Source: a bacterium
Lineage (GTDB): Bacteria > Actinomycetota > Acidimicrobiia > Spongiisociales > JAENVV01
Assembly (NCBI GenBank): GCA_024641305.1
Contig: JAHEDI010000003.1
Location: 48,889 to 112,888 of the forward strand
Reading direction: 5' to 3'
DNA: 64,000 nt
The position numbers were made by a program, and so were the translations under genes. This document shows positions 22,368 to 41,874 of this stretch, piece by piece. Each line of letters opens with the position of its first letter. The first letter of the stretch is position 1. The notes under the pieces are model-generated. The model worked only from the letters and a program-made list of their open reading frames with translations, was not told the DNA's origin and made no database searches.

Positions 22368-25139
22368 TCACGGGTGTTGCTCGAGGACTTCCAGGATGGT
22401 TTCGCCATAGCTCTCCGCCTTGGTCGAGCCAATCCCCGGGCAGGTGAGAAGCTCCTCAATCGTTGTAGGTCGTCTGGCTGCGATGCCAATGAGGTGTTTG
22501 TCGGAAAGGACGATGTAGGCGGGAACGTTCTGCGCTCTGGCCGTTTCGGCCCTCCAGCTCTTGAGGGATTCGACAATGGCTGGGTTCGCTTCGTGGACCG
22601 GACGGGCAAGGGGTGCAGAAATTGATCCAACCCGTACTCGCTCCCGCCAGGGCACCGTCAACCGGGCTCCTGTCGAGAGCTCGATGATGGCTCCGTCGTC
22701 GTCGAATGCGGTAACCGTGCCGTCGTAGCCTCCCCAGCGGAGGCGATCGCCCAGCCCAGGTGCGATCCCCCCGGTTGCCGGCGGGGTGGGTCGGTCAGGT
22801 CGAGAGCTGACTGTCTTCTTTGCGTTGCGCGGGGCGGTGCCGGAGAGCTCGGCGATGAATGGCGAGGGTCGGCTCCGATCGCCTACTACGGCCACCGATT
22901 CGATGCCCCGGGTTATGGCCACATGGAATACCCGCCGTTCCTCTTCCAGATCTTCGGCCAATTGATGAGGTAGAACCCCGTCGGTGACGCTGTAGACCAG
23001 AACGCACGGCCATTCGGCGCCTTTGACCTTGTGAATTGTCGACAACATCACGCCGGTCGGTGACCCTTCGGCTGCGAGGAGGGTCTCGAGTTTGGATTGG
23101 AAGGCTGCCGGGTTCGGGTAAAGGTCGGCCAGTTGGCTGATGGCGTCCAGGTCGTCTTTGTGGCCGGATCGATCAGGGGTCGTGCGCGACTGATCCAACA
23201 GCATGGCCGCGCGATCAAGGCCGACGGTCTTGCGTACCGCTTCTACGACGTCGCTGGTTGAACCTCGGGCGGCATTGGCAACCGTTTCGAGATCGGCGAC
23301 GAATTCGTCGAATCGATCCTGGAAGCGCTCCTCAAGCCGTCCTGAGGCGGCCGTCAGTTCTTCAAGGCTCCAGCGTCCCCGGCTTGAAATCAGCGCGGAC
23401 GCCACTCGTGTCATGCGACGAGGCGGCCGACCGAGCACCTCGCGCAGGTCGTCGCGGCTCATGACCTCCGGTGACAAACCCATCCGCAGGTATGCCAGGA
23501 ACGCCCGCACCGCGGTGCGGCGGAGAAAGTCAGCCCCCACCGGAGCGGTGTGGGGGACGCCTCGTTCGGTCAGGATTGCCTGGACCGGAAGGAGTGCGTG
23601 ATTCACCCGGCTGAGGACCGCGATGTCTCTCGGACGATGATCGGTCAGCCAACCGGTCACGATGTCGGCCGCCACCGTCCCCTGGCTATCGGAAGGGGCC
23701 GCCTCAACTCGCAAGTCAGGTGGTGAAATCGGGTCGGGTGAGACGATGTTCTTGGGGATACGCCGTGCGTTATAGCTGAGGAGATGTTTGGCGGCTTCGA
23801 CCACAACCGCCGGGGACCGGTAATTGGTTTCAAGCGCGTAGTGGCCGGCGCCGGGGAAGAGATCGTCGAAACCGATGAGAAAAGCGGGGTCGGCGCCGGC
23901 GTAGCCGTAGATGACCTGGTCGTCGTCGCCGACGCCGAATACTTGGTAGGCGGGAGCGGCCACCAATCGGAGCAAAAGAAGGTACGCCGGTGTGAGGTCT
24001 TGGAACTCGTCAACGAGCAGATGACGGGCAGAACTTCGAACCCGATCACGCAGATCGGGGTTCGTGAGGAGTAGTTGGATGGCTTGATAAATCTGTTCGT
24101 CGAAGTCGACCGCCCCTCGGTCGGCCAAGCGGCGCCGGTACTGCTCATAGACCTCGACGAAGCCCGGCACGTCATCGCGCTGATCTTCCACGATTGCCGG
24201 GTCGATCAGCCCGATTCTGACACTTGTCAAGGCTTCCAGGTAGGGGGCAGTGATATCACGATTCTGCGCTGGTTGAGCTGGAATCAGCGGAGCCAGGATG
24301 GACCGTTGCTCGCGCTCGTTGAGGACGGGAACGTCACCTTTGGATGCCCGAACAATGGCATAGGCCAACGAGTGAATGGTTCGTATGGAGGAGTCGACCC
24401 CTTCGATCCGCTCGGTCATCTCCCTGGCGGCCTTGGCGTTGTAGGCGACCGCCGTGATGAGATGTGGCTCGATCCACCGGTCGCGCACGAGATGCGTGAT
24501 CCGGGCGGTGAGAGTACGGGTCTTCCCCGAACCGGCCGGGGCGATGATCCGTGCTGGGCCGGCAGCATGATTGACGGCCGCCGATTGATCGTCTGCCAGG
24601 TCGGTATCGGATGCTCGTGGATGAGCAGGTGACGTGTTGAGTGTTCCCAGTTCAATTGACTCTCGATGAACAAGAAGATCGGCGATGTCTACTGGCCCTC
24701 GTGGTCCTCCGTCGCACCAGGCGGCGCGGCCATCAGGCAACAGGATGTCGGTGACCGAGCCGGGTTTGGCACCGAGTCGTTCGGCTTTTCGGCTGTGCCA
24801 CCAGATCGGATCGGATTCAGTTCCCCGACCGTCGTAATTGTTCGCCCAGACGAGAAACTGGAGGCGTTCCTTCGGGAATTCGAAATCCGGAGGGAGTGTG
24901 TATGGCTCGGCGTCGGTGATTTCTGTTTGGCGCAGCGTCTCTGCGGGAACCTGTAGTTCGACGATGAGAGCTTCACGTTGGGTCCAGGCTTTTGCCAGGC
25001 GAGCGATGGTTTTGGCTGGGGCGGCCATGACGGCCTCATCAAGGATCACTCGATCACAATCTGACCAGGGTGCTGGAGCGACGGCAGCGGAGGTAGTAAC
25101 GATGCCGCGGCCCAAACTTGCCGGTGGAAGAGGATTCAT
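22368..25139 (-). CDS. uvrD2: UvrD2-type ATP-dependent DNA helicase (UvrD core plus C-terminal HRDC, with an extra N-terminal domain)
   Basis: Walker A IIAPAGSGKTRTL and UvrD helicase motifs. The C-terminal LKSWRAETARAQNVPAYIVLSDKHLIGIAARRPTTIEELLTCPGIGSTKAESYG matches the UvrD2 HRDC tail. Start trimmed to the internal ATG because the upstream part of the track ORF overlaps a separate small membrane ORF. Confidence 0.8.
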   Translation of the reverse strand: MNPLPPASLGRGIVTTSAAVAPAPWSDCDRVILDEAVMAAPAKTIARLAKAWTQREALIVELQVPAETLRQTEITDAEPYTLPPDFEFPKERLQFLVWANNYDGRGTESDPIWWHSRKAERLGAKPGSVTDILLPDGRAAWCDGGPRGPVDIADLLVHRESIELGTLNTSPAHPRASDTDLADDQSAAVNHAAGPARIIAPAGSGKTRTLTARITHLVRDRWIEPHLITAVAYNAKAAREMTERIEGVDSSIRTIHSLAYAIVRASKGDVPVLNEREQRSILAPLIPAQPAQNRDITAPYLEALTSVRIGLIDPAIVEDQRDDVPGFVEVYEQYRRRLADRGAVDFDEQIYQAIQLLLTNPDLRDRVRSSARHLLVDEFQDLTPAYLLLLRLVAAPAYQVFGVGDDDQVIYGYAGADPAFLIGFDDLFPGAGHYALETNYRSPAVVVEAAKHLLSYNARRIPKNIVSPDPISPPDLRVEAAPSDSQGTVAADIVTGWLTDHRPRDIAVLSRVNHALLPVQAILTERGVPHTAPVGADFLRRTAVRAFLAYLRMGLSPEVMSRDDLREVLGRPPRRMTRVASALISSRGRWSLEELTAASGRLEERFQDRFDEFVADLETVANAARGSTSDVVEAVRKTVGLDRAAMLLDQSRTTPDRSGHKDDLDAISQLADLYPNPAAFQSKLETLLAAEGSPTGVMLSTIHKVKGAEWPCVLVYSVTDGVLPHQLAEDLEEERRVFHVAITRGIESVAVVGDRSRPSPFIAELSGTAPRNAKKTVSSRPDRPTPPATGGIAPGLGDRLRWGGYDGTVTAFDDDGAIIELSTGARLTVPWRERVRVGSISAPLARPVHEANPAIVESLKSWRAETARAQNVPAYIVLSDKHLIGIAARRPTTIEELLTCPGIGSTKAESYGETILEVLEQHP

Positions 25140-25177
25140 GAGTGCCAGGCTAGGCCGTACCTGTGACACAAAAGCGG

Positions 25178-28681: not shown

Positions 28682-30997
28682 TTACGTTTTGGCCGCCGCG
28701 ATCGTTCGAATCCGGTTGAGTAAATCGTCGATCTCTTCGATAAAGGCTGCACGGCGTTGCTCAAGGATGGACTCGCTTAGGCTTTCGGCGCGTTCTCCTG
28801 CCAATCCACGGTTCTTGGCAAGGTCCAGCGCCGTCTTGAAGAAGACCTGAGACACGGATTCGGCGGCGGTGATCTTGCCCTGGGATTGGTAGCTCTGACC
28901 CAGTCCGATCGCCTGGGACATAAAGCTCTTCTCATCGAAGGTGGCGGGAAGTGTGGTCAGTACATCGGCGACCACCGCATAGGACTCGAGAAACGGTGCG
29001 AGTGCCCATGTGCTCATCGCCGGCCGGATTGCGTCGAGGACCTCCCGGGCATCTCCGCCAAGGACCCGGGCGGGCCAGTCCGGATTGACCGCCTCGAGTT
29101 CGCTGGTGATCTCAGCTCGATATTCCTCTTTCGGAGTGAAGAAGAACTCGAACTTGAACAAATCACGAACACTCATCACCTCTTCCCAAAACAGATCAAG
29201 AGGGTCGGTCGGTCGCTCGGTAACGATTCGTTGGAGAGCCACCTCGGCGATCGCAATATTGACGAAGAAATGAATCACGACATTGCGGTAGTAGGCGGCC
29301 GACAGGTGTTGATCAGCTCCGATCTGATAAACCGGATGAGGGCCTCCATCAACCCTCGTCACAATGTCGTGTTCAACCAGACGGCCAAGGACTTCAACGA
29401 CCTGGTCGGTTCCATCCAACTGGACCCGTTCGGTCAATGGAAGACGTCTGCGAAGCACAAACTCGGCGAGTTCTCGGAGGGAGTCGGTGATCTCTTCGGC
29501 AGTGCGGGCGGTGTTGGGTCGACTCAGCAGTGCTACGCAGACACCGGCGGTTGGTGAGATCGGAGTAACCCGGCCGATCCGGACCATGACCTCGAAGGCG
29601 ACCTTCTGGATGGCGATCGATTTCTCGTCAGCATCGATGGTGCCGGCGGGTAGCGTTTTAGCCAACGAGACGGGCTCCCCGAACCTCACATACACGTTGC
29701 CGTGGCGACGTCGCAGCTGGGAGAGCGCATGTACGACCCAGGAGATGCTTTCGCCCTGTTTGGCTTCGCCTCGTTGCTCTTTGGCGTAATCGGCGACGTC
29801 CTGGATCTGGTCGTAGGCGATTGAGACCGGCAACAAGATGATGTCCTCAGCCTTTTGTCGAAGGTACGACTCGGTCACGTAGCTGAGCATCCCGAACTTG
29901 GGGGGGAGGAGCTTGCCGGATCGGCTACGGCCGCCTTCGAGATACCACTCGATCGGAAACCGCTTCTCGATCAGGAAATCGATGTACGAGCGGAGCGCGA
30001 ACTTATAGATCGGCTTGTCTTTGAACGTGCGCCTGATGAAGAAGACGCCGGATCGGCGAATGATCGGGCCGACCGGAAAGAAGTTCATGTTTATACCACC
30101 GGCCGTGTGGTTGGGAGGCCGGTTGTTCTCCCACAAGATGTACTGCAGCATCAAGCGATCCAACTGGCTCTTGTGCGAGGGGAGGAAGATCAGCGGATGT
30201 TGCTCGCCCATTTCATACAGTCGGTTTAAGTGGTCTGCGTCATAATTGATCGATCCGTATCCCTGCCGGTATATCCAGCTGATCAGATTGGCGGCCAGGT
30301 CGATCACGAGCGGTGAGTGGGTGGCAGCGATCTCTTTGAGGTTACCGATGGCTTCCTTGTGAATCGTTGCGTATGTCTTTCCGGTTTCTTTGGTCAGCAT
30401 TGAAATCCCGTCCCGGAAGGAACCGGTCCTCACGATTTCTTCGGTCAGGAACTTAGGAACCTTGTACCGATTGCCTCGCACGTGACGTTCGGCTCGTTCG
30501 AGGGTTAGCCAGGCTCTCCGCGAGACGAACTCGCGTAGGGCGACCACGTCGTCGGAGGCTTTCCACGCCTCCCGCAGGTCGGCGGCGCCAGCTGATTGGC
30601 CGAGCACGATCTGGCAGCGATCAGGAAACCTGCGAAGAAAGAGGTGCTGGCGAAGCAGGTTCGGATCCCGGGGATCTCCGAACTTAAGAAGATCCGATAG
30701 TCGGACAGATCGGGTTCCGTCCCGATCGGGTGCTTGCCACACGACCCGAACTGGCACGATGAGAGGGTCGTCGCCGCGGCCCAATCTGGCTTCAAGGCGT
30801 GGATCGGGCCGCACCCCAGGACGACGGCGGCGCGAGGGAGGGATCCGGATCGTCTCGTAGTCATGACCAAGCCGGCTCGCCCAGTTCGAAATCAGCTGTT
30901 CTTCGAGTTGGCTGGAAGCATCAACGAGCAGGACGGTCGGTCGGCCGACGGACCCTGGCCAGTCGGGCTCGATTGCAAGGGGTCGATCGTATGCCAT
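28682..30997 (-). CDS. plsB: Glycerol-3-phosphate O-acyltransferase (PlsB-like)
   Basis: ~770 aa with the HxxxxD acyltransferase motif (PSHKSQLD) and FFIRR / EGGRSRSGK blocks typical of PlsB. Confidence 0.8.
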   Translation of the reverse strand: MAYDRPLAIEPDWPGSVGRPTVLLVDASSQLEEQLISNWASRLGHDYETIRIPPSRRRRPGVRPDPRLEARLGRGDDPLIVPVRVVWQAPDRDGTRSVRLSDLLKFGDPRDPNLLRQHLFLRRFPDRCQIVLGQSAGAADLREAWKASDDVVALREFVSRRAWLTLERAERHVRGNRYKVPKFLTEEIVRTGSFRDGISMLTKETGKTYATIHKEAIGNLKEIAATHSPLVIDLAANLISWIYRQGYGSINYDADHLNRLYEMGEQHPLIFLPSHKSQLDRLMLQYILWENNRPPNHTAGGINMNFFPVGPIIRRSGVFFIRRTFKDKPIYKFALRSYIDFLIEKRFPIEWYLEGGRSRSGKLLPPKFGMLSYVTESYLRQKAEDIILLPVSIAYDQIQDVADYAKEQRGEAKQGESISWVVHALSQLRRRHGNVYVRFGEPVSLAKTLPAGTIDADEKSIAIQKVAFEVMVRIGRVTPISPTAGVCVALLSRPNTARTAEEITDSLRELAEFVLRRRLPLTERVQLDGTDQVVEVLGRLVEHDIVTRVDGGPHPVYQIGADQHLSAAYYRNVVIHFFVNIAIAEVALQRIVTERPTDPLDLFWEEVMSVRDLFKFEFFFTPKEEYRAEITSELEAVNPDWPARVLGGDAREVLDAIRPAMSTWALAPFLESYAVVADVLTTLPATFDEKSFMSQAIGLGQSYQSQGKITAAESVSQVFFKTALDLAKNRGLAGERAESLSESILEQRRAAFIEEIDDLLNRIRTIAAAKT

Positions 30998-31007
30998 GAT
31001 TGCGATC

Positions 31008-31562
31008 CTACGCACGAAAGCAGCTCGACGTATGGTCGTCAACGACCCCGACCGCCTGGAGATAGGCGTACATGATTGTGGGGCCGACAAACGTGAATCC
31101 CCGATCCTTGAGATCCTTTGACAACCTCAGTGATAGATCGGTTTGGGCTGGGATATCTCCCAGTGCTCGTGGACGGTTTACGATCACCGCTCCGTCCGTC
31201 CAGTTCCACAGGTAGTTGGCGAACGATCCGGCATCGGCTTGGACCGCGAGGAATTTCTGCGCGTTCTTGATGGCGCCGACGATTTTGAGCCGGTTCCGAA
31301 TGATGCCCGCATCTTTGAGAAGGCGGGCTTCGTCTGTGGCCGAAAAGCCCGCCACGGCATTCGGGTCGAAGTTGGCAAAGGCTTGTCGGTAGGCCGTGCG
31401 GCGCCCCAGGATGGTACGCCAACTGAGCCCGGCTTGCGCTCCCTCAAGAATGAGAAACTCGAACAGTTTTTGGTCGTCCATGACAGGCACACCCCACTCG
31501 GTGTCGTGGTAGTCGGCGTACAAATCGTCGCCGTCAGGGACCCAGGCGCAACGGATTGGCAT
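31008..31562 (-). CDS. tag: DNA-3-methyladenine glycosylase I
   Basis: Tag family: YHDTEWGVPV, LEGAQAGLSW, and a zinc site with C-terminal ...DHTSSCF. Confidence 0.85.
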   Translation of the reverse strand: MPIRCAWVPDGDDLYADYHDTEWGVPVMDDQKLFEFLILEGAQAGLSWRTILGRRTAYRQAFANFDPNAVAGFSATDEARLLKDAGIIRNRLKIVGAIKNAQKFLAVQADAGSFANYLWNWTDGAVIVNRPRALGDIPAQTDLSLRLSKDLKDRGFTFVGPTIMYAYLQAVGVVDDHTSSCFRA

Positions 31563-31593: not shown

Positions 31594-32049
31594 ATGCGTT
31601 TGGTTGTTCAGCGGGTTCGTCATGCGTCGGTGGTGGTCGGCGGTCGTGAGGTCGGATCGATTGGCACCGGTTTACTGGTTCTGGCCGGTACCACGCACGG
31701 CGATTCGGAAACAGACGTGCGGGTTCTGGCGGAAAAGTTGGTCAACCTCCGGGTGTTTCCCGACGCGGACGGAAAGATGAACCGATCACTGCTTGATATC
31801 GGGGGACAGCTCCTACTGGTAAGCCAGTTCACCTTGTACGGTTCGGTCATGCGCGGTAATCGGCCGTCCTTCACCGGAGCCGGAGACCCCGTCGAGGCGG
31901 CTCGCCTTCTCGACCGGCTCGAGACTGAGATACAAGATCGTGGGGTTCACGTGGCCGGTGGAGAATTTGGCGCTTCGATGGAGGTTTCTTTGCTCAACGA
32001 TGGGCCGGTGACGTTGATTCTGGAATCCGTGTCGGGCAAACTCCGCTAG
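31594..32049 (+). CDS. dtd: D-aminoacyl-tRNA deacylase
   Basis: MRLVVQRV...SQFTLY...NGPVT(L)ILE hallmarks of Dtd. 151 aa. Confidence 0.85.
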   Translation: MRLVVQRVRHASVVVGGREVGSIGTGLLVLAGTTHGDSETDVRVLAEKLVNLRVFPDADGKMNRSLLDIGGQLLLVSQFTLYGSVMRGNRPSFTGAGDPVEAARLLDRLETEIQDRGVHVAGGEFGASMEVSLLNDGPVTLILESVSGKLR

Positions 32050-35000
32050 GACTCCAACCAGGCTTTCCCTTCCGGGCAGAAGCGGAGGAAATCGCAATTG
32101 GAACAGGCACTGGACGGGATCGGGTCGAATACCTGAGCGCCGATACCTTCGGCGATGCCCGACAACCGGCTTCTGGCGGCCTCCATCCAGGCGTCATCGA
32201 TGTGTTCGGTTCGCTCGGTGAGGCTCCCGCCCCCCAGGTAGGCAAACGTGGCGATCATCTGGTCCGGTCGGGTGGGTCCGAGGGACCCCCTGTCGACGGC
32301 CACTGCATAGGCCTGGAGCTGCACGTCCATCGCCGGGTTCTCAGAGGGTCTACCCGACTTGAAGTCGACGATTTCCCATGTCCCCGGTTGTTCCTCATAT
32401 ACGGCATCGATCCGGCCACGGATTCGCATACCGTCATGGACAAACTCGAACGGCGCTTCGATAAGGCGGGCGGCCAGGGTCGAAAATCGTGACTGTTCGA
32501 ACACGGTGAACGCGCTTGCAACATCCGACGGACCTGCGTCGGGAGCGTCATAGAAGTCGTCGGTGACCTCCTCGAACGGCACCGCGCCTCGTTGGAACAG
32601 TTCGATCTTGCGATGAACGTCAACTCCGCGCCGAGCTGCGGCTGATGGGCGACGGGGAAGGCGATCGACCTCGGACCAGTAGTACCGTTTTGGGCAGCTG
32701 GCGTAGGTAACCAGAGACGTGACGGATGTGGCGAGCGGGGCGGGAATTGGTGGACCGACCGGGTCGTCTGGCAAGTCGAAGAGTATCTGCTGAAAGTCGG
32801 TCACGGCCTGATCGTAGGTCGATCGCACGCCGAGTTGATCAGCCTGATGGCTGGCCCAACCAGGGTCAGAAAGGGTGGCACGCAATGCGCCATCCCACCC
32901 ATCGGCGAATGTCGGATCGGGCGATCCTGCTAGCGGTGACCGGCGGAGCGATTCCGGTCGAACCGGGTCCTCAACCGTCCCGAGATCGACGACATCGGGC
33001 TGTTCGGCGGCGATTTCAAAGAGCCGGCTTGGCTTTCCTGGTGTCTTGCGCACTTCGGTAGTCCCGTGCCAGGTTGCCCCGGTCAGCGTCAGCCATCGGC
33101 GTGCCCTGGTTACTGCTACGTAGGCGATACGCCACTCTTGGTCCAGGTCGCGCTGGCGCAACAGGTCGCGTCGTTCTGCCTCAGTCATGTCCGCGCTAAT
33201 TGGGGGCAGCGTATGTCGGTCAAGTCGCAGTTCGTACGGGAGCATGTATGGGTGACGAAATGGATCGTCCGAGACCCCTGAGGAACTTGGGAAGTTCTTG
33301 TCGTATAAGGCGGGTATGAACACCGCGTCCCATTCGAGGCCTTTGGAGCGATGAACTGTCAGCAGAGCGACAGCATCTTCTCCTGATAGCCGGGCCGTAT
33401 CGAGTTCTTCGGTCTGCTCTTCAACCATCACGGTGAGGTAGTCGACGAACGCCCGCAACGAGGGGCGTCCTTCAAGCGGGCTCCATTCTTCGGCCAGATC
33501 GAGGAAGCGGTAGAGATTCAGTCGCGCCGACTGGCGGGCGGCGGCCGGCATAGCGGCCACCTCCGGCCAGGCTCCGGTCCTTGACAGGATCTGGCGCACC
33601 AGCTCAATCAGGTTGACGCCCTGGGCGGCCTCGAGCAGGCTCCGGTAGGTGATGTGCAGGTGTACCAGGGCGTCAATCGTGCGGTCGTCGAGTTGATCGA
33701 CCTGGAGGTGATCGTCCTGACCCAGGGTTCCGGCATCGTCGCCCTGCGTCGACGTAAGCTGGTCGAGGGCCTCGACCATCGAGCGGCCGAACTCAGGTTG
33801 GTTCTTGACCCATCGCGACAATGGTTTGACGTCGTGCATACCGAGTCGATAGCGGCTGCCCATCGCAATACGGATGAAGGCCGGCTCGTCCGACGGGTTG
33901 TCGAGCAGACGCAACCAGGCGAAAACATCGGCTACCTCAGGTATGCCAAGAAGTCCGCCCAGGTTGGCCACCTCCACGGGGATCCCGAACTCCTCGAGAG
34001 CGCCTCGGACGGCCTCAATGTCCTTGTTCTTTCTGAAGAGAACAGCGATTTCCTTCCAGGCGATGCCCTGTTCCTCGTGCAGAGCGAGCACCTGTTCGGC
34101 GATGAAGTCCGCTTCATCGACGGCGTTGCCCTCCCAACGCACGCTGACCGCTGCCGGGCTCGTCTCGTCAAGCGCCCGTAGTGGGTCGGTGACTTCTCCG
34201 AGTTCCTCGCGTATTCGATTGGCCAGGTTCAAAATGGTTTGGCCGGATCGGCGATTGAGTGTCAATGGGTAGGTCGGGGCGGGTGACCCGTCAAGGTTGG
34301 GGAAGTGGTCGCCGAATCCCGAAAAGTTCGCCAGTGATGCGCCTCGCCACTCATAAATCGTCTGGTCGGCATCTCCAACGGCCGTGATCGGGAATCCGTC
34401 TCCGAACAGCTTACGGAGCAGTTCGCGTTGGGCGGGGTTGGTGTCCTGGTATTCGTCGAGATACACGGCGTCGTAACGACTGCGAATGCGAGCCGCCAGG
34501 TCCGGGTAGTCGCTGGTGAGTCGGTTGGCTCGAAAGATCAGGTCACCGAAATCGGCCACTCCTATGCGACGTTTTTCTTGCTCATACCGCTCGATAATGC
34601 CGAGGATCTCCAGTCGGGTCTCCCACAGCTCGTCGAGCTTGGATGGCATGAGCCCGGCCAGGTGGGAGGGTTCGGCCAGGTTGTCGGCGAGAGCGGCGGC
34701 GAGCCGGGCTGGACGGTCGAGGATCCCGCTCCACGTGATGTTCAGGTACCGGTAGGTACCGCCTTCCACGGCATCGTGGAAGAGCTGACGGGCGAACGTT
34801 GGTGTGATGAGCTGCGTGTCGCGCTCCACCCCTACGAGCGGCCCGAACTCACTGAGGATCTGATGGGCGAAACCGTGATAGGTATGGACCTCAACAGTGC
34901 GCGCCGGGTCGATACGATCGGCCAAAACGTCACGGACCCGGTCGGCGAGTTCGGCAGCGGCTTTGTTGGTAAACGTGATGCCCAGGATTCGTTCAGGATC

Positions 35001-35141
35001 TGCCCCAGAGTCGATGAGGTGAGCGATGCGATGGGCGAGCGTGGTTGTCTTGCCGGTTCCCGCCCCGGCAGCAATTCGCATGGGACCGATCGGGGCACCG
35101 ATGATCGCTGACTGCTCGTCGCTCGGTAGGAATGCGGTCAT
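32046..35141 (-). CDS. adnB: ATP-dependent helicase/nuclease subunit AdnB-like (UvrD helicase plus C-terminal RecB-type nuclease with Cys cluster)
   Basis: Walker A AGAGTGKTTTL, UvrD motifs, and a C-terminal PD-(D/E)xK region (DFKSG...QLQAY) with Cys residues (CPKRYYW...CSNCDFLRFCP). Its start overlaps the adnA stop (ATGA). Confidence 0.8.
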   Translation of the reverse strand: MTAFLPSDEQSAIIGAPIGPMRIAAGAGTGKTTTLAHRIAHLIDSGADPERILGITFTNKAAAELADRVRDVLADRIDPARTVEVHTYHGFAHQILSEFGPLVGVERDTQLITPTFARQLFHDAVEGGTYRYLNITWSGILDRPARLAAALADNLAEPSHLAGLMPSKLDELWETRLEILGIIERYEQEKRRIGVADFGDLIFRANRLTSDYPDLAARIRSRYDAVYLDEYQDTNPAQRELLRKLFGDGFPITAVGDADQTIYEWRGASLANFSGFGDHFPNLDGSPAPTYPLTLNRRSGQTILNLANRIREELGEVTDPLRALDETSPAAVSVRWEGNAVDEADFIAEQVLALHEEQGIAWKEIAVLFRKNKDIEAVRGALEEFGIPVEVANLGGLLGIPEVADVFAWLRLLDNPSDEPAFIRIAMGSRYRLGMHDVKPLSRWVKNQPEFGRSMVEALDQLTSTQGDDAGTLGQDDHLQVDQLDDRTIDALVHLHITYRSLLEAAQGVNLIELVRQILSRTGAWPEVAAMPAAARQSARLNLYRFLDLAEEWSPLEGRPSLRAFVDYLTVMVEEQTEELDTARLSGEDAVALLTVHRSKGLEWDAVFIPALYDKNFPSSSGVSDDPFRHPYMLPYELRLDRHTLPPISADMTEAERRDLLRQRDLDQEWRIAYVAVTRARRWLTLTGATWHGTTEVRKTPGKPSRLFEIAAEQPDVVDLGTVEDPVRPESLRRSPLAGSPDPTFADGWDGALRATLSDPGWASHQADQLGVRSTYDQAVTDFQQILFDLPDDPVGPPIPAPLATSVTSLVTYASCPKRYYWSEVDRLPRRPSAAARRGVDVHRKIELFQRGAVPFEEVTDDFYDAPDAGPSDVASAFTVFEQSRFSTLAARLIEAPFEFVHDGMRIRGRIDAVYEEQPGTWEIVDFKSGRPSENPAMDVQLQAYAVAVDRGSLGPTRPDQMIATFAYLGGGSLTERTEHIDDAWMEAARSRLSGIAEGIGAQVFDPIPSSACSNCDFLRFCPEGKAWLES

Positions 35142-38107
35142 CGGACAAATGCCTCTCGTCCTTCGGGCCAGAGGGGGCACACCAGTTTTACGGAGCAGTT
35201 ATTGCAGTGTATGCCGATCCGCGGGGTCCAATCTTCCGCCCGGATCCCCTCGGCGATTTCGGCCATGGAACCGAGAACCTGATCGAGCCGTGACGGATCG
35301 AATGCCACCCATTTCTTCTTCCGATCGGCGGCGGGATACCAGAACTCGGCTTCGGTTGGCGTGCCGTGTTTGAGGACCTCGGGGTCTTTCTGGGCTGCCG
35401 CCAGGTAGAACGCCAGTTGAATGGATTCAGCTGCGTCGGCCTGGCTGGGGATGCTTGTTGAGGTCTTGTAATCGACAACCCGGAGTTCGCCCTCGGCTTG
35501 TCGTTCTATACGATCGGCCCGGCCATTCCAGGTGATGTCGCTGATGTCCATCGAGAGCGTGTGTTCGAGAATCACTGCCGTGGCTCCAGGACGGATCCAG
35601 TCGGCGTATAGCTCGGTCAGCAGTTTGGTGGCTTTGTTGTACCAGGCCAGTTGGCGAGCTCCGATGTCCAGGTCGTACGTGTCGAACAGTTCGTCGAGCC
35701 ATACCAGCGCATCGTCGACGGTTGAGCGGTCGGCGCCGGTTTCGACGGCGCGGCGCTCGGCCTGTTCGAGTACGTCGTGGATCAGGCTCCCGAAGGTGGC
35801 GTAGCGTCCGAATTCGCTGGCAATGCCGAGCCTCCGTTCGAAGGCGTACCGTCGCGGGCAGGCGTCATATGAGGTTGCCTGGCTCGGGGAAAACGTTGCC
35901 CGGTCGGGGATCAAGCCGTGATCGCCGCCCCGGGGGCGAACCCCGGCAAAGTCGAGTGGGTGACGAACTGAGCGGTTCGGTCTCCTGGCCAGGACTTCGG
36001 CTGCGGCCAATCGAATGCCGGCTCCTATCGTCGGGTCGGTGAGTCGTCGCCTGAGCAGCGCTTCGGCCTCGAGCGGCGTGACCGGGATCTCGTCGGTCTC
36101 GTCGACGAGGTTGAGCGGAGCGTCTTCGTCGAGGGCGGTCAGGAAACGGCTTGGTCGTTTGTCCGTTTCGTCGATACCAGCCGAGGTGGCGGTCCAGATG
36201 GCGTGGCGGGCAGCCCGGGTGGTGGCGGTGTAGGCGAGTCGCCGTTCTTCCGCCAGTCGGAATTGGAGGCTGTCGGCGATGTCGTGGTTGGGGGACAGCA
36301 GATGTGGTTGAAGGAGGGAGCGGTTCCTTCTCAGGTCGGGAAAGGTGCCTTCGGTCGCGTCGGCGATGAAGACCACATCGAACTCAAGACCTTTGGACTG
36401 GTGAAGGGTCGTGAGCGTCAACCGGTCGCCATCGGGCCGGAACGAGAGGAGCGGGTTGGCCTCGAAGTCATCCTGCTCGGTGAGCTTCCCGTATGCGTAC
36501 AGGCCTACATGAGGGTCCCGCTCAAATTGACGCTCCACCGCCTGAGCGAGCGCCGACCACGCAGCCCGATAGGGGCCTGCCGACGGAGACGCCACCAATC
36601 CTTCGAACTGGGGGAGCGTTGACCAGACGTGCCAGAATCCGTTCACGGCCGGAAGCTCAGTCGCCCAGGTGTCATCGCCGATGAGTGTTGCCAATGGCCC
36701 GAGCCACTCGGAGTCGTAGGCCTCAAGAATCGTCGCCCAGTCATTGCCGGTTGATCTGCGCAGCCGGAGCAAGTCGCGCTCGGTGGCCAGGGCCGTGCGA
36801 AACATCGGGCCGAGGAGTAGGCGGCGAATGGCCCGATCACAGTCATCGGCTGCTCCGGTCCCAACCTTGGCGTCGTGGTGATGGGCGGCGTTGGCGATAT
36901 CGAACACGGCCCTGACGCCCGGATGATCGGCCAGGCGCGTGTCCGGTGAATCGTGGGGAATGGCCCGCCGTTCAAGCGCCCGAGATAGCTCGGCGAGAAA
37001 ACGTCGTTTGGATCGAACCAGGACGGCCATCTTGTGATAGGGAACCGACTCGGTGATGTGCATCTGCTGAACCCGCTTGGCGATCCACTCGGCCTCCTGG
37101 GACTGCTGGGTGAACAGCAAACGCTCAAGCCTTCCGGCGTGAGGTGCCGGGATTACCGAGCGGATGGCTTCGGCGTGAGGGACGAGACGATTGGCCGCGT
37201 CAAGAATGACCGCCGGTACGCGAAACGACGTTGTCAGGACGTACTGTTTCACGGGTTCGTCGGGGCTGCCGAACCGGTCGCCGAATCGATCAACGTTGTC
37301 GAGTTCGGCACCCCGGAACGAATAGACGGACTGGAGCGGGTCGGCCACCACCGTCAGATTGCGGCGCCGCTTGGTAACCCCGCCGAGCAGGGCAGCCTGG
37401 GCGGCCGTGGTGTCCTGGTACTCGTCGACGAGGACATAGTGATACTGGTCGGCGAGGGCTTCCGTGATGGTGCTTCGTCCGGCTAATTCGACGGCTCGAG
37501 CTTGCAGGGTTCCGTAGTCGATTCGATCCGAGGTCGTGATCGCTTCGAGGTACTTTGCACGGAATGCGCCCAGGCCCCGCCAGTCTGCCCGGGGTGCGGC
37601 CAGTGACGACAGTGCCGCATCGTCGAGCAGGTATTCCTGGGACCGCATGATGAAGTCGGCGACCTCTTCGGCAAAACTTCGGCTATCGAGCAACGGCCGA
37701 AAGGGCAGCGGCCAATCCGCCCGGGTTTCGGTTGCGAGTAGTCCGGCGACGACGCTCACATGCTCAGGGCCGGTCAGCAGCGTCGGCATGGTGTTCCACC
37801 CGAAGGCAGCCGGAGCATGCGCCTCGAGTAGTCGATACGCAAAACTGTGAAAGGTCGAGACGCTTAGTCCGGAAATCTGCGTGGGGGCGGTCGCGGTGAT
37901 GGCGTCGCGCAGTCGAGATGCCCCGCGTCGAGAAAATGTCAGAACGAGAATCTGGGAGGGAGGCACGCCGGATTTGAGAATGGCGGCGGCCCGACGGGCC
38001 AGGAAGGTTGTTTTTCCCGTGCCTGGCCCGGCGACAATCAGTTGGGGGCCGTCCAACAAGGTAAGGGTACGGTCCCAATCGTCGGGGTCGATACGTTCGG
38101 CAGTCAC
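35138..38107 (-). CDS. adnA: ATP-dependent helicase/nuclease subunit AdnA-like
   Basis: Walker A AGPGTGKTTFL, UvrD-like motifs, and a C-terminal nuclease module with VDYKTS...QLAFY and CNNCSVKLVCP. Lies immediately upstream of adnB as in mycobacteria. Confidence 0.75.
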   Translation of the reverse strand: MTAERIDPDDWDRTLTLLDGPQLIVAGPGTGKTTFLARRAAAILKSGVPPSQILVLTFSRRGASRLRDAITATAPTQISGLSVSTFHSFAYRLLEAHAPAAFGWNTMPTLLTGPEHVSVVAGLLATETRADWPLPFRPLLDSRSFAEEVADFIMRSQEYLLDDAALSSLAAPRADWRGLGAFRAKYLEAITTSDRIDYGTLQARAVELAGRSTITEALADQYHYVLVDEYQDTTAAQAALLGGVTKRRRNLTVVADPLQSVYSFRGAELDNVDRFGDRFGSPDEPVKQYVLTTSFRVPAVILDAANRLVPHAEAIRSVIPAPHAGRLERLLFTQQSQEAEWIAKRVQQMHITESVPYHKMAVLVRSKRRFLAELSRALERRAIPHDSPDTRLADHPGVRAVFDIANAAHHHDAKVGTGAADDCDRAIRRLLLGPMFRTALATERDLLRLRRSTGNDWATILEAYDSEWLGPLATLIGDDTWATELPAVNGFWHVWSTLPQFEGLVASPSAGPYRAAWSALAQAVERQFERDPHVGLYAYGKLTEQDDFEANPLLSFRPDGDRLTLTTLHQSKGLEFDVVFIADATEGTFPDLRRNRSLLQPHLLSPNHDIADSLQFRLAEERRLAYTATTRAARHAIWTATSAGIDETDKRPSRFLTALDEDAPLNLVDETDEIPVTPLEAEALLRRRLTDPTIGAGIRLAAAEVLARRPNRSVRHPLDFAGVRPRGGDHGLIPDRATFSPSQATSYDACPRRYAFERRLGIASEFGRYATFGSLIHDVLEQAERRAVETGADRSTVDDALVWLDELFDTYDLDIGARQLAWYNKATKLLTELYADWIRPGATAVILEHTLSMDISDITWNGRADRIERQAEGELRVVDYKTSTSIPSQADAAESIQLAFYLAAAQKDPEVLKHGTPTEAEFWYPAADRKKKWVAFDPSRLDQVLGSMAEIAEGIRAEDWTPRIGIHCNNCSVKLVCPLWPEGREAFVR

Positions 38108-38284
38108 GGCCTGACAGACCCTAGACGGGCGTTATGCCGCGCTCGGCAGCGAGACCGGAGTCTCTTGAATAACCGTGAAACCGATGCCGGCTTCAGTTAG
38201 TGCTCGTTCGGCTTGGGTGAGGAGGTGTTCGGTCATGTTGTTCATACGTATACCGTACGACGAAGGTGTGACAGAATCTGCATC

Positions 38285-38764
38285 ATGATCATCCGACCCC
38301 TGATTTCGACAGACGTCGTCGAAGCAGTGGCCTTGAACAATGCCGAAGTTCCCCATGTGGGACCAACCGACCAGGAGCATCTGACCCGTTTTTTGGACTA
38401 TCCCGGAGTCGTGTGGGTTGTCGAGATGGATGACGCATTGACGGGACTGTTGGTGGCCTGTGAACCTGGCTCGACCTATGAGTCGACCAATTACCGCTGG
38501 TTCGACGAACGGTCTGACGATTTCATCTATGTGGATCGGATCGTCGTTGCTCCGTCGGCGCAGGGGTTGGGGATCGGTCGCCTTCTCTACGACCGCCTCG
38601 CAGAGGCATATGTCGGGATCGCCCGTCAGATGACCTGCGAGGTCAACCTTGATCCCCCCAACGAAGCCTCGATGGCATTTCACGAGCGGATGGGGTTCCG
38701 CCACGTCGCCACCAAGCCGGATGGCCTAAAGACAGTTGCGCTCCTTGCCCGCGAGCTGGGTTAG
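38285..38764 (+). CDS. GNAT family N-acetyltransferase
   Basis: Acetyl-CoA-binding motif VAPSAQGLGIGRLL (Q/RxxGxG/A). Start trimmed to MIIRPL. Confidence 0.65.
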   Translation: MIIRPLISTDVVEAVALNNAEVPHVGPTDQEHLTRFLDYPGVVWVVEMDDALTGLLVACEPGSTYESTNYRWFDERSDDFIYVDRIVVAPSAQGLGIGRLLYDRLAEAYVGIARQMTCEVNLDPPNEASMAFHERMGFRHVATKPDGLKTVALLARELG

Positions 38765-39453
38765 CGCCGACCCGACATGAGAAGACGCAGCACGTACCAG
38801 AACATGAGCGCCACGGAGGCGAACAAGTCGATCGCCGCCCCTACGTAGGCGTCTTCCGGATAACGGTGCAAGATATTCGATGTGTCGTACAGGATGGTCG
38901 CTCCGGCAAACACAACCATGCCGATTGAGAAGGCCGTTCCCAGCTGGAACCCGAATAGGACCGACGCAATGATGAGGCCCAGAGCCCCAAAGCCGATCCA
39001 CATGAGGGCGGTCCGCATGAAGGAGAAGTCCTTGCGGGTGACGAACACGATTCCGGTAAGGACTGCGAACCCGATGACGGTGATTGCCGCCGCCGAGGAA
39101 ATAACTCCGGGGAAGTAGGAGTCGGCGATGAAGAGGAGCGGGGCGAAGAAGACCGCTTCGAACACGATGTAGGCGCCCAGCGCAGCATATTGAGTCGGGG
39201 TCGATGAACCCGACCGGGCGAAACGTCTGCTGAGGCTGGCAAGCAGAATGAAGCCGCCCATGAATAGCAGCCAGTTTGTGTTGAACGCGAAGTCGGCCAC
39301 CCGTTGGGCAATCCCCGTGGTGAAGAGAACGTACTCGACACCGGCAAAGGCCAGAATCGACAGGAACAGCAACCGGTAGGTCTTCGCAATGAAGGCGGCG
39401 CGTCGCTGGACCGTGGTCTGGGCAACGGGAATCGGGCTGGTTTGTTCGAACAT
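38761..39453 (-). CDS. Bax-inhibitor-1 / YccA family membrane protein
   Basis: Seven hydrophobic segments, and C-terminal LDTSNILHRYPEDAYVGAAIDLFASVALMFWYVLRLL typical of the BI-1/UPF0005 family. Confidence 0.7.
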   Translation of the reverse strand: MFEQTSPIPVAQTTVQRRAAFIAKTYRLLFLSILAFAGVEYVLFTTGIAQRVADFAFNTNWLLFMGGFILLASLSRRFARSGSSTPTQYAALGAYIVFEAVFFAPLLFIADSYFPGVISSAAAITVIGFAVLTGIVFVTRKDFSFMRTALMWIGFGALGLIIASVLFGFQLGTAFSIGMVVFAGATILYDTSNILHRYPEDAYVGAAIDLFASVALMFWYVLRLLMSGRR

Positions 39454-39629
39454 GTATGACCTCCGTCTCCAAATACTAGAGCCAAACGCGCGATAGTTAC
39501 CGACGGACCTTGCCAGGGGCATAAGGCAGTTGGTCTTCAACGAGTCGGCGCGGTATTTCAGATAGAGTCCCGAACCGGATCCTGATAGACCGCATCCGGT
39601 CGGGAATTCTGCTTCAGGCGGCCGCGCAA

Positions 39630-39803
39630 CTAGGCCGCGACGACTCCGCAGATCCAGCACTCCAAAGCCTCGATGCCGGCCACGTCGAGCACCAACGCGG
39701 CGTGATCGTAGGCCCCGTTACAGACCGGGCAGGAAGGTGCTGGGCCGTCAAAGTCGACCTCGACGCCTATGTCCAATTCGGCTAGTAGTTCGGTAAATTC
39801 CAT
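39630..39803 (-). CDS. Small zinc-ribbon-like protein (57 aa, CPVC...CWIC)
   Basis: Short ORF with two CxxC pairs. It sits between the Cas4-like nuclease and the BI-1 gene on the same strand. Confidence 0.35.
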   Translation of the reverse strand: MEFTELLAELDIGVEVDFDGPAPSCPVCNGAYDHAALVLDVAGIEALECWICGVVAA

Positions 39804-39908
39804 ACGTGTAATTCTACCGGCTGCCGGGGACAAACACGCTGGTTCGGACCTGGGTCCGGGTATTGACAGAGTGAGGCGTCGCGGTTGGCTGTCGGAAGAT
39901 TTGGGCTG

Positions 39909-40718
39909 CTACGAAGCGGCCGCGTCGGCTGTTTCGGCGCCGATCGCGCCAAATGCCGGGCACAGATCTTGGTATGAGCACCAATCGCACAGTTTGTTGA
40001 CTCTCGGCGGGAAGGTCTGGCTCTCGATCGCTCGATCGATGGCTTTCCAGAGTGCCTGGAGCTGTTGATTCATGGCGTCGAGATGGCCATCGGTAACCTC
40101 GAGCCGGTACATGGTGGGCCCGTTCAGATAGAGCAGACGTACCTCGACGGGTGTTCTTCCTAGCTTCTCCCTGATCAATAGCGCGTAGATCTTCAGGGCA
40201 AAAAAGGCCGGCTCGGCGAAACGCTCCGGGGGCGCCTTTCCAGACTTGTAATCGGTGATGATGAGCTCACCGGAGGGCGTCTCATCGATGCGGTCGAGAA
40301 TGCCGCGGATGGTGATGTCTCCCAGGGGTTGGAGCATGTCCATTTCCCGTTCGAGCGGATGGACTTCAGGCGGGTTCTCCACCGAGAAATAATTGGCCAG
40401 GAGTTTCATACTGTCGACGCCCCAAGTGCGTTCCTCATCCACGCTGGCGAACAGGTCGGCGTACTCCTCGGTGGCTCGCATTTGAGTCCAGGCGTCGCGG
40501 AACAAGTCATACAGTTTTTCGGGCGTCCGGGCGGTAGGGGGAAGGTCATAGAGTTTCTGGAGAGCCAGGTGTGCGGTGGTTCCCCGCGCTTGATGCACGG
40601 TGGTTGGTTCGGGAAGTTTGTCGATCGAGCGAAACTTGAAAAGCTGTGGACACAGCTTGAAGTCGCTCGCTCGACTCGGTGAAAGTGTCTCCAATGCCAT
40701 GGTGCGACTATACGACAT
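39909..40718 (-). CDS. PD-(D/E)xK (RecB/Cas4-like) nuclease with C-terminal Cys cluster
   Basis: Core IITDYKSGKAP...(E)..AL.IYALL nuclease motif (D-x-K plus QxxxY), a C-terminal CDWCSYQDLCP cluster and an N-terminal Cys (FKLCPQLF). This fits a Cas4-like 4Fe-4S nuclease domain. Confidence 0.7.
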   Translation of the reverse strand: MSYSRTMALETLSPSRASDFKLCPQLFKFRSIDKLPEPTTVHQARGTTAHLALQKLYDLPPTARTPEKLYDLFRDAWTQMRATEEYADLFASVDEERTWGVDSMKLLANYFSVENPPEVHPLEREMDMLQPLGDITIRGILDRIDETPSGELIITDYKSGKAPPERFAEPAFFALKIYALLIREKLGRTPVEVRLLYLNGPTMYRLEVTDGHLDAMNQQLQALWKAIDRAIESQTFPPRVNKLCDWCSYQDLCPAFGAIGAETADAAAS

Positions 40719-41399
40719 AGGAGTGACACGTTTGTTATTCGCTTCGGTTGCGGCCGGGCGATGTTCCGCCGATTTCGCATGAGAAAGCCGTTGTCGAGGC
40801 AAAGCGCGAAACCTTTGGCTAGCTCGCGAAATTTAGGTACCGAATTAACTTGGCAGTCCTCCCGAAGTGCGGTACGTTTATTGAACCGCATCGACGGGAC
40901 GGCCGGAGGGGCAACTCACCGGACAGAGCGACGGAGCGGATTGCTGAAACCGAGAGGGTTCAGTGAAAGCTACTGGGAGAACGAGGCCCTCGGGCAGCGG
41001 AGTTCCAGAAAGCGGGGAAGCCCTGAAGTGGCACAGGCGCAAGTCTGAGTCTCGGCAGGGCTTCTTGCTTTAACCAGCCACCGGTTCGTCCGTCTCACTG
41101 CTGACGGTCCCGGCGTTTATCACTCAGGTGGATGTTCCGTCGAAACCGATGATGCGACTCTGTCATGGTTCCCGCCCTGCCCTGCTTGGCCGGCCGGTGA
41201 ATGGATGAGCCCGTCTGAAAATCGTCATCCGAGGTGGCCAAACTCGCCGCCAGGTCTGACCCAGAAGTCCCAGCGACCCTGCCCGTGATGCGGTTCGCGA
41301 AAATTAGTCTCAAGTCGCGAAATCTAACCACGATCTGAGCTTGCCAAGTCGGTCCCGGTGTTCTACTTTTCATCTTGTTCGAAGCGGGGCGACCCGCAG

Positions 41400-41870
41400 A
41401 GAGCACCGACAACCTGAAACCTTCGGGCGACAGGGCTGGCCTTCGGGTCGGTGTTGGAGTCCCGGCAACGGGACAGCCGCTTGAACGGCTGAAACCGCCT
41501 TCGGGTGGGGACAACGTTGGAGAGGTAGGTGGAACCGAAGAAGGAGCCTTCGGGTTCGTTGGACGGAACCGCCGAGGCCCGCAAGGGTCGCCCTTTTTGG
41601 GCAAAGTGTGAGAGCACTGGACCGCAAGGAAACGTGCAGGATCGCTGGCAACGGTCGACCGGAAACGTGAGATCTAGCCACCGCCAACCGGCCCTCGGGC
41701 CAGTTGGTTGCAGAAGAGCCTTCGGGTTCGGACGCATGCCAGTGAAGGAGTCTTTCGGGACACACCCACCGGCGACGAGACAACCCCGAGAGGGTGAAGA
41801 CTTCGGTCGGAACTTACTCGGGGTTTCTCGCGTTGGGGCAACATTCGCTTGCCGATGCCGGGTAAAGTTT
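41400..41870 (+). other. Candidate structured RNA or long structured 5' leader: an array of UUCG/CUCG-tetraloop hairpins upstream of the PH-SHOCT gene
   Basis: At least 8 occurrences of CC-UUCG-GG, GCC-CUCG-GGC and GAC-UUCG-GUC hairpins, with recurring GAAACC and GTTGG spacers, in ~470 nt. No convincing ORF on either strand. Coordinates are approximate. Confidence 0.35.
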
Positions 41871-41874
41871 CTCC

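Follow-up and report, generated by a model that had tools for sequence, protein, structure and literature searches.

The 64,000-nucleotide stretch of DNA analyzed here (contig JAHEDI010000003.1 of assembly GCA_024641305.1, positions 48,889 to 112,888, hereafter called the window; G+C content about 60%) encodes proteins whose closest relatives belong to metagenome-assembled Acidimicrobiia of the phylum Actinomycetota. It carries the gene of a stand-alone, Cas4-like nuclease upstream of adnA and adnB, a helicase-nuclease gene pair. We propose, with a probability of roughly 0.6, that the nuclease gene, a 57-codon open reading frame (ORF) termed ZnR57, a unit composed of another small ORF, adnA and adnB, and a uvrD2 gene located 13 kb away are separately promoted, leaderless units of the actinobacterial LexA-independent (PafBC-type) damage response. 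The genes concerned are given below with their positions in the window (nt, nucleotides; aa, amino acids).

40718 (40700 likelier)..39909, minus strand: stand-alone PD-(D/E)xK nuclease, "Cas4L" (PF12705, E 2e-34, end-to-end; Cas_Cas4, 24.6 bits)
39630..39803, minus strand: ZnR57, 57-aa ORF with two CxxC motifs, ending in ...GVVAA (no Pfam or NCBIfam family)
38132..38245, minus strand: 37-aa small ORF MNNMTEHLLTQAERALTEAGIGFTVIQETPVSLPSAA, unannotated and free of cysteines, its stop 25 nt 5′ of the adnA GTG
35138..38107, minus strand: adnA, 989 aa (UvrD motor and PF12705)
32046..35141, minus strand: adnB, 1031 aa (UvrD motor and PF12705)
22368..25168, minus strand, probable start ATG 25139: UvrD2-like helicase (UvrD and HRDC, Pfam domains)

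The damage-type promoter motif

The motif emerged from an alignment of the 300-nt regions in front of the nuclease gene, where TGTCA-N11-TATAGT is followed by the start codon 5 to 7 nt further on, and it was searched as TGTC[AG]-N11-TANNNT. The strict form occurred three times in the 64-kb window, in front of the nuclease gene (40728), the small ORF preceding adnA (38273), and uvrD2 (25168), while a relaxed form with one mismatch was present at ZnR57:

40707..40728, minus strand: nuclease promoter, TGTCACTC-CTATGTCG-TATAGT, then 6 nt and ATG 40700 (leaderless; strict motif)
38252..38273, minus strand: promoter of the small ORF, adnA, and adnB, TGTCACACCTTCGTCGTACGGT, then 6 nt and ATG 38245 (strict motif)
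25147..25168, minus strand: uvrD2 promoter, ATG 25139 being 7 nt after the −10 box (strict motif)
39811..39832, minus strand: relaxed ZnR57 promoter, TGTCC-N11-TAGAAT, then 7 nt and ATG 39803 (one mismatch)

Two gene starts were revised in the light of these positions. Because the motif at 25168 lies inside the mechanically delimited uvrD2 ORF (22368-25433, minus strand), which is 98 codons too long, the start of this gene, which lies near adnAB in mycobacteria as well, was placed at ATG 25139. Similarly, a preliminary description of this DNA had reported a 270-aa nuclease about 1.8 kb upstream of adnA and on the same strand; its place and strand are as reported, whereas the −10 box TATAGT (40712..40707) falls within the first codons assigned there, so that the start is most likely ATG 40700 (MALETLSPSR, 263 aa), in line with the M.LE.LSPSR with which many homologues begin.

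In the Acidimicrobiia loci, 143 occurrences of the motif were counted in 2.73 Mb of sequence (both strands). Of 83 loci, 75 have it where the nuclease gene starts, with the start codon 5 to 8 nt past the −10 box, and about 60 of the 67 hits that remain coincide exactly with the beginning of the small ORF or, where this ORF is missing, with that of adnA; of 72 loci, 56 have a strict motif in the 420 nt preceding adnA. The counterparts of ZnR57 in two loci (L001 and L002) carry the exact TGTCAC-...-TA...T motif. Furthermore, the leaderless motif precedes all four nuclease orthologues from Actinomycetes (Streptomyces, Nocardioides, Georgenia, and Quadrisphaera).

The geometry of the motif, in which a GTC-containing −26 box lies 16 nt upstream of TANNNT and no −35 box is present, is identical to that of the PafBC element tGTCgg(N10)tA(N3)T, in which a −26 box with a strictly conserved GTC is paired with a canonical −10 box (PMC8635444). 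Mycobacterial adnA served as a positive control, and TGTCGG-N10-T....T-N6-7-ATG was present in 75 of 79 metagenome-recovered loci. Like the mycobacterial PafBC (RecA-NDp) promoters, those described here are 22-nt bipartite elements followed after a few nt by the start codon; unlike them, they belong to another class, their consensus has moved to TGTCAC(A/T)CC, and their binding by PafBC is a prediction. A search with the RecA-NDp pattern TGTCRGTG-N8-TANNNT, allowing at most one mismatch, returned nothing relevant, the local consensus differing in the three bases that follow TGTCR, and a generic scan for sigma-70 promoters and terminators was uninformative. On a Mycobacterium smegmatis-like contig (L088), adnA is preceded, at a distance of about 110 nt, by three tandem copies of a segment with the PafBC −26 element (ccgctacTTGTCGGgctcgtcgctccaat).

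In mycobacteria, adnA is strictly PafBC-dependent (M. smegmatis and M. tuberculosis, PMC8682763), and for rv2119, which encodes an exonuclease discussed below, induction by mitomycin C has been reported in a mutant lacking recA (PMC8151990). The best-supported tie between the nuclease and AdnAB hence appears to be their joint membership of a LexA-independent damage regulon across two classes, with PafBC binding and induction predicted from the motif. As the mycobacterial PafBC regulon comprises about 150 genes (PMC8635444), a common promoter supports a part for both in one stress response but is no proof of a dedicated partnership between the two.

The stand-alone nuclease and AdnAB

Both adnA and adnB match PF00580, PF13361, and PF12705, that is, a UvrD-type motor of superfamily 1 (SF1) followed by a C-terminal RecB-type nuclease module. 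These modules had been recognized in the preliminary description, together with an ATGA overlap of the two genes, which is real (...TTT GTC CGA TGA / ATG ACC GCA), and with the cysteine strings CNNCSVKLVCP, CSNCDFLRFCP, CPKRYYW, FKLCPQ, and CDWCSYQDLCP, every one of which was found in the translations. The adnB product aligned with M. smegmatis AdnB (6ppu_B) with an E-value of 2.6e-99 and that of adnA with M. smegmatis AdnA (7sjr_A) with an E-value of 2.5e-31, spanning the motor and nuclease parts; on the motor part of adnA alone, UvrD and PcrA score about as well as AdnA. In adnA, RVVDYK aligned to M. smegmatis VVVDLK, which includes D934, the metal-binding aspartate whose mutation kills the AdnA nuclease (PMC8789073). 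Likewise, CNNCSVKLVCP aligned to CANCPVRSSCP of M. smegmatis AdnA, and the cysteine of CPRRY in adnA likewise falls in line with those of M. smegmatis AdnA, while IVDFK and CPKRYYW...CSNCDFLRFCP were read from the translation of adnB. With paired paralogous subunits, subunit-specific similarity, and DxK plus 1+3 cysteine ligands, the pair was identified by its sequence as AdnAB, the known motor-nuclease of double-strand-break resection, the resection activity being predicted. AdnAB is the main end-resection enzyme of homologous recombination in Actinobacteria, and its control by PafBC is well studied in mycobacteria.

As in mycobacterial AdnAB (Rv3202c/Rv3201c; PDB 6PPJ, 6PPR, 7SJR), the two genes overlap and are paralogous, each encodes an SF1 motor and a RecB-type nuclease with the 1+3 cysteine pattern and the DxK motif, and the leaderless promoter has the PafBC-type geometry. 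The differences are that the window proteins are only about 30 to 45% similar to the mycobacterial ones, that the Acidimicrobiia operon usually opens with a small ORF ending in Ala-Ala (absent in 76 mycobacterial loci), and that the −26 element is TGTCAC here and TGTCGG there. In a deeper clade of Acidimicrobiia, a third PF12705 protein (about 475 aa, with a C-terminal nuclease domain) is encoded after Dtd, just downstream of adnAB (L085:17926-19353 and L087:18024-19448).

Concerning the stand-alone nuclease, its residues 11 to 254 matched positions 1 to 247 of the 247-position PF12705 profile. Homologues 63 to 96% identical to it are numerous in Acidimicrobiia, where they are named "putative RecB family exonuclease," and a profile search retrieved homologues 37 to 44% identical from Actinomycetes, with named members in Streptomyces, Streptosporangium, Nocardioides, Georgenia, Quadrisphaera, Allobranchiibius, Haloactinospora, and others. 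When cluster representatives were searched exhaustively, 320 clusters were retrieved at E ≤ 1e-30, most of the matches listed being full-length (250 to 350 aa) and about 27 to 45% identical. The conservation of the cysteines, whose lack would have counted against the proposal of the preliminary description, was borne out: C23, C244, C247, and C253, as well as D142, D156, and K158, were invariant in three alignments comprising 20 close homologues (A1), 51 family representatives with 29 to 46% identity (A2), and 44 sequences from Acidimicrobiia and Actinomycetes (A3), and D156 was aligned to D934 of AdnA. At residues 174 to 178, Acidimicrobiia have Ala (ALKIY) in place of the Gln of the RecB-type QxxxY motif, the Actinomycetes sequence being FQMKFY.

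With its single-domain PF12705 match of about 260 to 300 aa and its invariant cysteine and D...DxK residues, the nuclease is assigned by sequence to a pan-actinobacterial "RecB family exonuclease" group, a known uncharacterised family. Rv2119 was placed in the same group by its annotation name and its description as a RecB-like exonuclease (PMC8151990, PMC2587704). The window nuclease resembles Rv2119-type proteins in length, in its single domain, in the invariant cysteine and catalytic residues, and in the leaderless PafBC-type promoter; it differs from them in having ALKIY rather than FQMKFY and in its location next to adnAB in Acidimicrobiia, whereas in four Actinomycetes genera the gene is divergent from the Peptidase_M50-TrmI-ARC-Dop-Pup-proteasome locus.

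The AlphaFold2 model of the nuclease had a mean predicted local distance difference test score (pLDDT) of 92.3. Its best solved matches in Foldseek were ACE1, a Cas4-family protein associated with Argonaute (E 6e-11, template modeling [TM] score 0.66), and the AdnA nuclease domain (TM 0.70-0.72), followed by AddAB, Dna2, Cas4, and Exo5. ACE1 is an experimentally shown Fe4S4 endonuclease acting on single-stranded DNA (ssDNA), which is threaded through a narrow channel (PMC12094033). By analogy with ACE1, the window nuclease is most likely an iron-sulfur (Fe-S) exo- or endonuclease of ssDNA that relies on other enzymes for unwinding. Both proteins have the RecB-like fold, a four-cysteine Fe-S cluster, and, within a narrow channel for ssDNA, a D-DxK site (cluster and channel being predicted here); unlike ACE1/Cas4-type proteins, to which it is 13 to 17% identical, the window nuclease has no Argonaute, cas1/cas2, or CRISPR array nearby and stands in a conserved chromosomal context of repair genes.

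We envisage the nuclease as the orthologue, in Acidimicrobiia, of the "RecB family exonuclease" found throughout the phylum, a single-domain, Cas4/AddB/AdnA-like enzyme in which one N-terminal and three C-terminal cysteines would hold the predicted Fe-S "staple" and the D...DxK site would cut ssDNA threaded through a narrow channel. As it has no helicase domain, it must work on ends or flaps of ssDNA that other enzymes have produced, and it would probably be induced along with AdnAB, UvrD2, and the other members of the regulon as ssDNA builds up.

Its resemblance to Cas4 raises the question of whether the nuclease is instead a solo-Cas4 or another defence-type nuclease directed against foreign DNA, placed near repair genes by chance. 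It does give weak matches to Cas4 and DruK models (39.6 bits with TIGR00372; PADLOC E 1e-10), its top structural match is associated with Argonaute, and the relative P0398 of locus L086 sits among TnpB-like and methyltransferase genes. Yet the TIGR00372 score is below the equivalog cut-off of 65 bits, the Pfam Cas_Cas4 model is passed marginally (24.6 vs. a threshold of 22.7 bits) with the C-terminal half alone covered, and the PADLOC matches remain at the superfamily level. No cas domains were found in the window genes from 10.5 to 57 kb, no Argonaute was found in the window, and no CRISPR array was detected, since the 64-kb window has no tandem or short-spaced direct repeats. Moreover, homologues 63 to 96% identical at a fixed chromosomal position throughout the class are typical of a housekeeping gene, and the nuclease has a conserved damage-response promoter. 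Assignment as a CRISPR Cas4 was therefore rejected, the context of L086, which looks mobile and lacks adnAB, was treated as an exception, and a defence function of any kind seems very improbable to us.

We compared the neighborhood of the nuclease in 80 loci from contigs of one genome per species, all from Acidimicrobiia and with a nuclease 63 to 87% identical to that of the window, onto which the window proteins were mapped by tblastn. adnA lay downstream of the nuclease gene and on the same strand in 65 of the 80 loci, with a gap ranging from 45 nt to 6.3 kb and with direct adjacency in about 15. Nine loci were too short to place adnA, two (L011 and L021) have 10 kb downstream of the nuclease without adnA, and in four (L009, L018, L029, and L043) the nuclease is inverted relative to adnAB, which speaks against a specific link. 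The distance to adnA was at most 10 kb in 42 of 42 loci having both flanks; however, the whole region is syntenic in Acidimicrobiia (37 of 42 loci keep FabI, and 46 of 56 keep Dtd), so that the linkage within the class is weak evidence by itself. The commonest arrangement has an opposite-strand glutamate dehydrogenase gene between the nuclease and adnA (29 loci), and the other intervening genes encode a DUF488 protein (12 loci) or, in the window and its closest relative, BI-1 and GNAT proteins. The window genes in question, along with those following adnB, are:

38761..39453, minus strand: BI-1/YccA-family membrane protein (PF01027, E 2e-28)
about 38285..38764, plus strand: GNAT acetyltransferase (PF00583, E 5.5e-12; start inferred from the L002 homologue)
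31594..32049, plus strand: Dtd, D-Tyr-tRNA deacylase (PF02580)
28682..31090, minus strand: PlsB-like acyltransferase (PF19277)

The preliminary description had placed the nuclease, the 57-aa ORF, and the BI-1 gene correctly on one strand but had overlooked the GNAT gene; as the latter separates BI-1 from adnA and runs in the opposite direction, nuclease and adnAB do not form one transcription unit here. The BI-1 gene was mapped in 1 of the 80 related loci and is a lineage-specific insert outside the nuclease/adnAB system, and the GNAT gene, found among related loci in L002 alone, is a lineage-specific insert that parts the upstream genes from adnAB.

Two long contigs of the deeper clade, whose nuclease is about 45 to 50% identical to that of the window, have the order alaS (opposite strand), nuclease, 50-61-aa ORF, adnA, adnB, and Dtd, with intergenic gaps of 30 to 45 nt and an upstream flank (alaS) that differs from the window's. 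Because this compact cluster has another flank, the order nuclease, small ORF, adnA, adnB is probably ancestral to the class Acidimicrobiia and was interrupted later by unrelated genes. It is not phylum-wide: in Streptomyces, Nocardioides, Georgenia, and Quadrisphaera, the nuclease orthologue is divergent from Peptidase_M50, TrmI, ARC/Mpa, Dop, Pup, and PrcB/A, and no UvrD/PDDEXK pair (adnAB) was found at most 10 kb from it. The conserved linkage that the preliminary description had set as a test of its idea is, accordingly, a property of Acidimicrobiia that does not extend to these four genera.

The same loci bear on a closer relationship, in which the nuclease would be a dedicated accessory of AdnAB, e.g., a third nuclease trimming ends or flaps beyond AdnAB and coupled to it physically or functionally. 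Such a role would suit the adjacency kept in two deep Acidimicrobiia clades with unlike upstream flanks, the fold shared with AdnA's own nuclease domain, the common damage promoter, and the loci L061 and L065, where the nuclease ends 45 to 60 nt before an adnA that has no promoter motif of its own, which implies a single operon. We nevertheless regard it as unlikely, given that in most Acidimicrobiia the two are separated by unrelated, often oppositely oriented genes, that the orthologue lies away from adnAB in four Actinomycetes genera, that the four loci with an inverted nuclease and the two without adnA downstream break the arrangement, that FabI is retained almost as faithfully, and that an interaction between the nuclease and AdnAB is purely hypothetical. 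The cooperation proposed in the preliminary description is thus partly supported: it is plausible in Acidimicrobiia in view of the linkage and the common promoter, but with unrelated genes in between and no linkage in four Actinomycetes genera, the data do not set it apart from shared regulation combined with inherited synteny.

We therefore return to the reading of separately promoted units of a PafBC-type response, against which the following points must be set: (i) no pafBC gene or WYL regulator was found among the window genes scanned; (ii) the Acidimicrobiia consensus TGTCAC(A/T)CC differs from the mycobacterial TGTCGG, and another factor could read the motif; (iii) the orthology with Rv2119 was drawn from annotation names, family membership, and synteny in four genera rather than from a direct comparison with the Rv2119 sequence; (iv) Fe-S binding and DNase activity are predictions throughout the nuclease family; (v) at least 591 genomic relatives exist, of which the closest 80 were analyzed; and (vi) the compact cluster of nuclease, small ORF, and adnAB in two clades, together with the single operon of L061 and L065, leaves room for a specific partnership.

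The small proteins ending in Ala-Ala

An ORF ending in Ala-Ala-stop was found 0 to 65 nt (mostly 17 to 27 nt) upstream of adnA in 44 of the 72 loci having the adnA start, the background of such endings being 128 in 11,294 small ORFs. The members share a core, "F.DPV.YLA..GIEAELV" or "LL.AAGI.aELV%EGP...CPxC," which is followed by a variable segment of 8 to 20 aa and by (E)AA. A coding signature was evident in the core (codon-position entropy 13.8/12.4/23.4; ratio of nonsynonymous to synonymous variation, pN/pS, 0.52), and the penultimate Ala is encoded by all four codons. A hidden Markov model (HMM) of the 44 sequences, compared with 28,000 six-frame ORFs, found nothing else but one truncated locus and, weakly, two-module paralogues located by the nuclease; the 37-aa ORF of the window matched this HMM with an E-value of 1.4e-7, a circular result as the ORF is among the 44 seed sequences.

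When the ZnR57 type was compared with the adnA-leader family by hhalign, a probability of 93.6% and an E-value of 2e-7 were obtained, and on this profile comparison ZnR57 is a two-module paralogue of the family. The 57-aa CxxC...CxxC ORF of the preliminary description is thus present (39803..39630), while its "zinc-ribbon" label gives way to that of an Ala-Ala family paralogue. Homologous ORFs occur in L001, L002, L003, L005, and L006. A CxxC...CxxC regular expression for the ZnR57 type matched in 3 of 78 loci; what defines the family is its GI.aELV core together with the Ala-Ala ending, not the cysteines. No family was found for the small ORFs in Pfam, NCBIfam, PADLOC, or PHROGs, members are publicly annotated as "hypothetical protein" (the ZnR57 type in an NCBI metagenome-assembled genome), and no such ORF was present upstream of adnA in the 76 mycobacterial loci.

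It might be argued that the ORFs are not proteins at all, the conserved DNA 5′ of adnA being promoter or regulatory DNA and the Ala-Ala ending arising from constraints at the nucleotide level. The last codon is GCC in 33 of 44 loci and the stop is TGA in 36 of 44, a cCTACGATC box within a few nt of the stop could be an internal adnA promoter, and the peptides are short and variable, with the cysteine pair often missing. However, an entropy at the third codon position nearly double that at the first two, the pN/pS value over the core, and the use of all four codons at the penultimate Ala are difficult to reconcile with that view, as are the leaderless promoter positioned exactly at the ORF ATG in 43 loci, the specificity of the family HMM among six-frame ORFs, and the existence of a paralogue with the same ending away from adnA. 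We consider the non-coding explanation improbable; the Ala-Ala small-protein family is real and coding.

The invariant C-terminal Ala-Ala of the family resembles the ending of the SsrA tag, which ClpXP recognizes. One can imagine, as a tentative possibility that we do not favor over its alternatives taken together, that these proteins form an undescribed, DNA-damage-induced family encoded by the first cistron of adnAB in Acidimicrobiia, that their Ala-Ala ending acts as an SsrA-like ClpXP degron, and that they are transient modulators of AdnAB or the nuclease which disappear once the damage signal ends, ZnR57 being a duplicated paralogue. The degron and modulator roles are speculation.

The cCTACGATC box, which is TANNNT-like, is conserved between the small-ORF stop and the adnA start, 7 to 10 nt before the latter in many loci (e.g., L031, L034, and L047; 38113-38127 in the window). 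At these loci adnA has no Shine-Dalgarno sequence, and the box may be an internal leaderless adnA promoter.

Surroundings of the genes and biological meaning

Where the small ORF is absent, a same-strand DUF488 (PF04343) gene often abuts adnA. It was seen next to adnA in L027, L033, L037, L044, L046, L048, L062, L063, L066, L067, L072, L073, L075, and L080, a DUF488 gene is also present at L005:10746-11333, and L042 and L049 carry both this gene and the small ORF; DUF488 may be a further recurrent companion of adnAB. The genes located 5′ of the nuclease in the window were considered as a Pup-proteasome locus and rejected, as they encode bPH/SHOCT, YbaK-like, FabI, histidine kinase, Mur ligase, and Ddl proteins. 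A Peptidase_M50 gene is located at 20534-21640 (plus strand); about 0.7 kb, including a Sir2 gene, separate it from the uvrD2 3′ end at 22368. An M50 peptidase is the invariant divergent neighbor of the nuclease orthologue in Actinomycetes, and that of the window bears the same family name.

A 1.15-kb stretch upstream of the nuclease (40719-41874) displayed no codon periodicity in comparison with L001 and L002; it contains highly conserved islands at 40875-41075 and 41375-41475 and many CCCGAAGG hairpins. Two TTTCGCG(A) direct repeats spaced by 20 nt (40805..40831, minus strand), each with the palindrome TCGCGA, lie 70 to 100 nt upstream of the nuclease promoter and are conserved in 25 to 30 aligned loci and in L085 and L087, that is, in both Acidimicrobiia clades. 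The stretch opens with a conserved hairpin, ACCCCGAGGGAGC..GGCCGAAGCC..CCCTCTCGGGGTTC (41777-41838, minus strand), of which each Acidimicrobiia locus has one to six same-strand copies, and of 132 copies in all, 93 fall no further than 1.5 kb 5′ of the nuclease. A unit of 210 to 290 nt (mostly about 215 to 225 nt) is headed by the hairpin in about 27 loci, and an alignment of 25 such units revealed compensatory changes in 10 of 18 predicted pairs. The unit is possibly an undescribed structured RNA. No known RNA was found in the 1.15-kb gap by ARAGORN or by Rfam, the latter run with the gathering threshold on the whole window and with an E-value threshold for 40700-41900.

As the genes are of known kinds and have a common damage promoter, most of what is described here is ordinary repair-gene biology, with the exception of the undescribed small protein 5′ of adnA. 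AdnAB is already known, and the nuclease adds a member to a family that is known but uncharacterised; what is modestly new is that the PafBC-type promoter is extended to this nuclease and to Acidimicrobiia, and that a family of Ala-Ala small proteins heads adnAB. None of these findings overturns current understanding. They do indicate that the PafBC-type promoter architecture appears to reach deep-branching, mostly uncultured Acidimicrobiia, with a shifted consensus. A phylum-wide, predicted Fe-S nuclease that has the same damage promoter in two classes and is attached to adnAB in one of them is a well-justified candidate for knockout and epistasis analysis, and the conserved small protein with an SsrA-like ending that opens the adnAB operon in Acidimicrobiia offers a testable entry point to how end resection may be controlled post-translationally.

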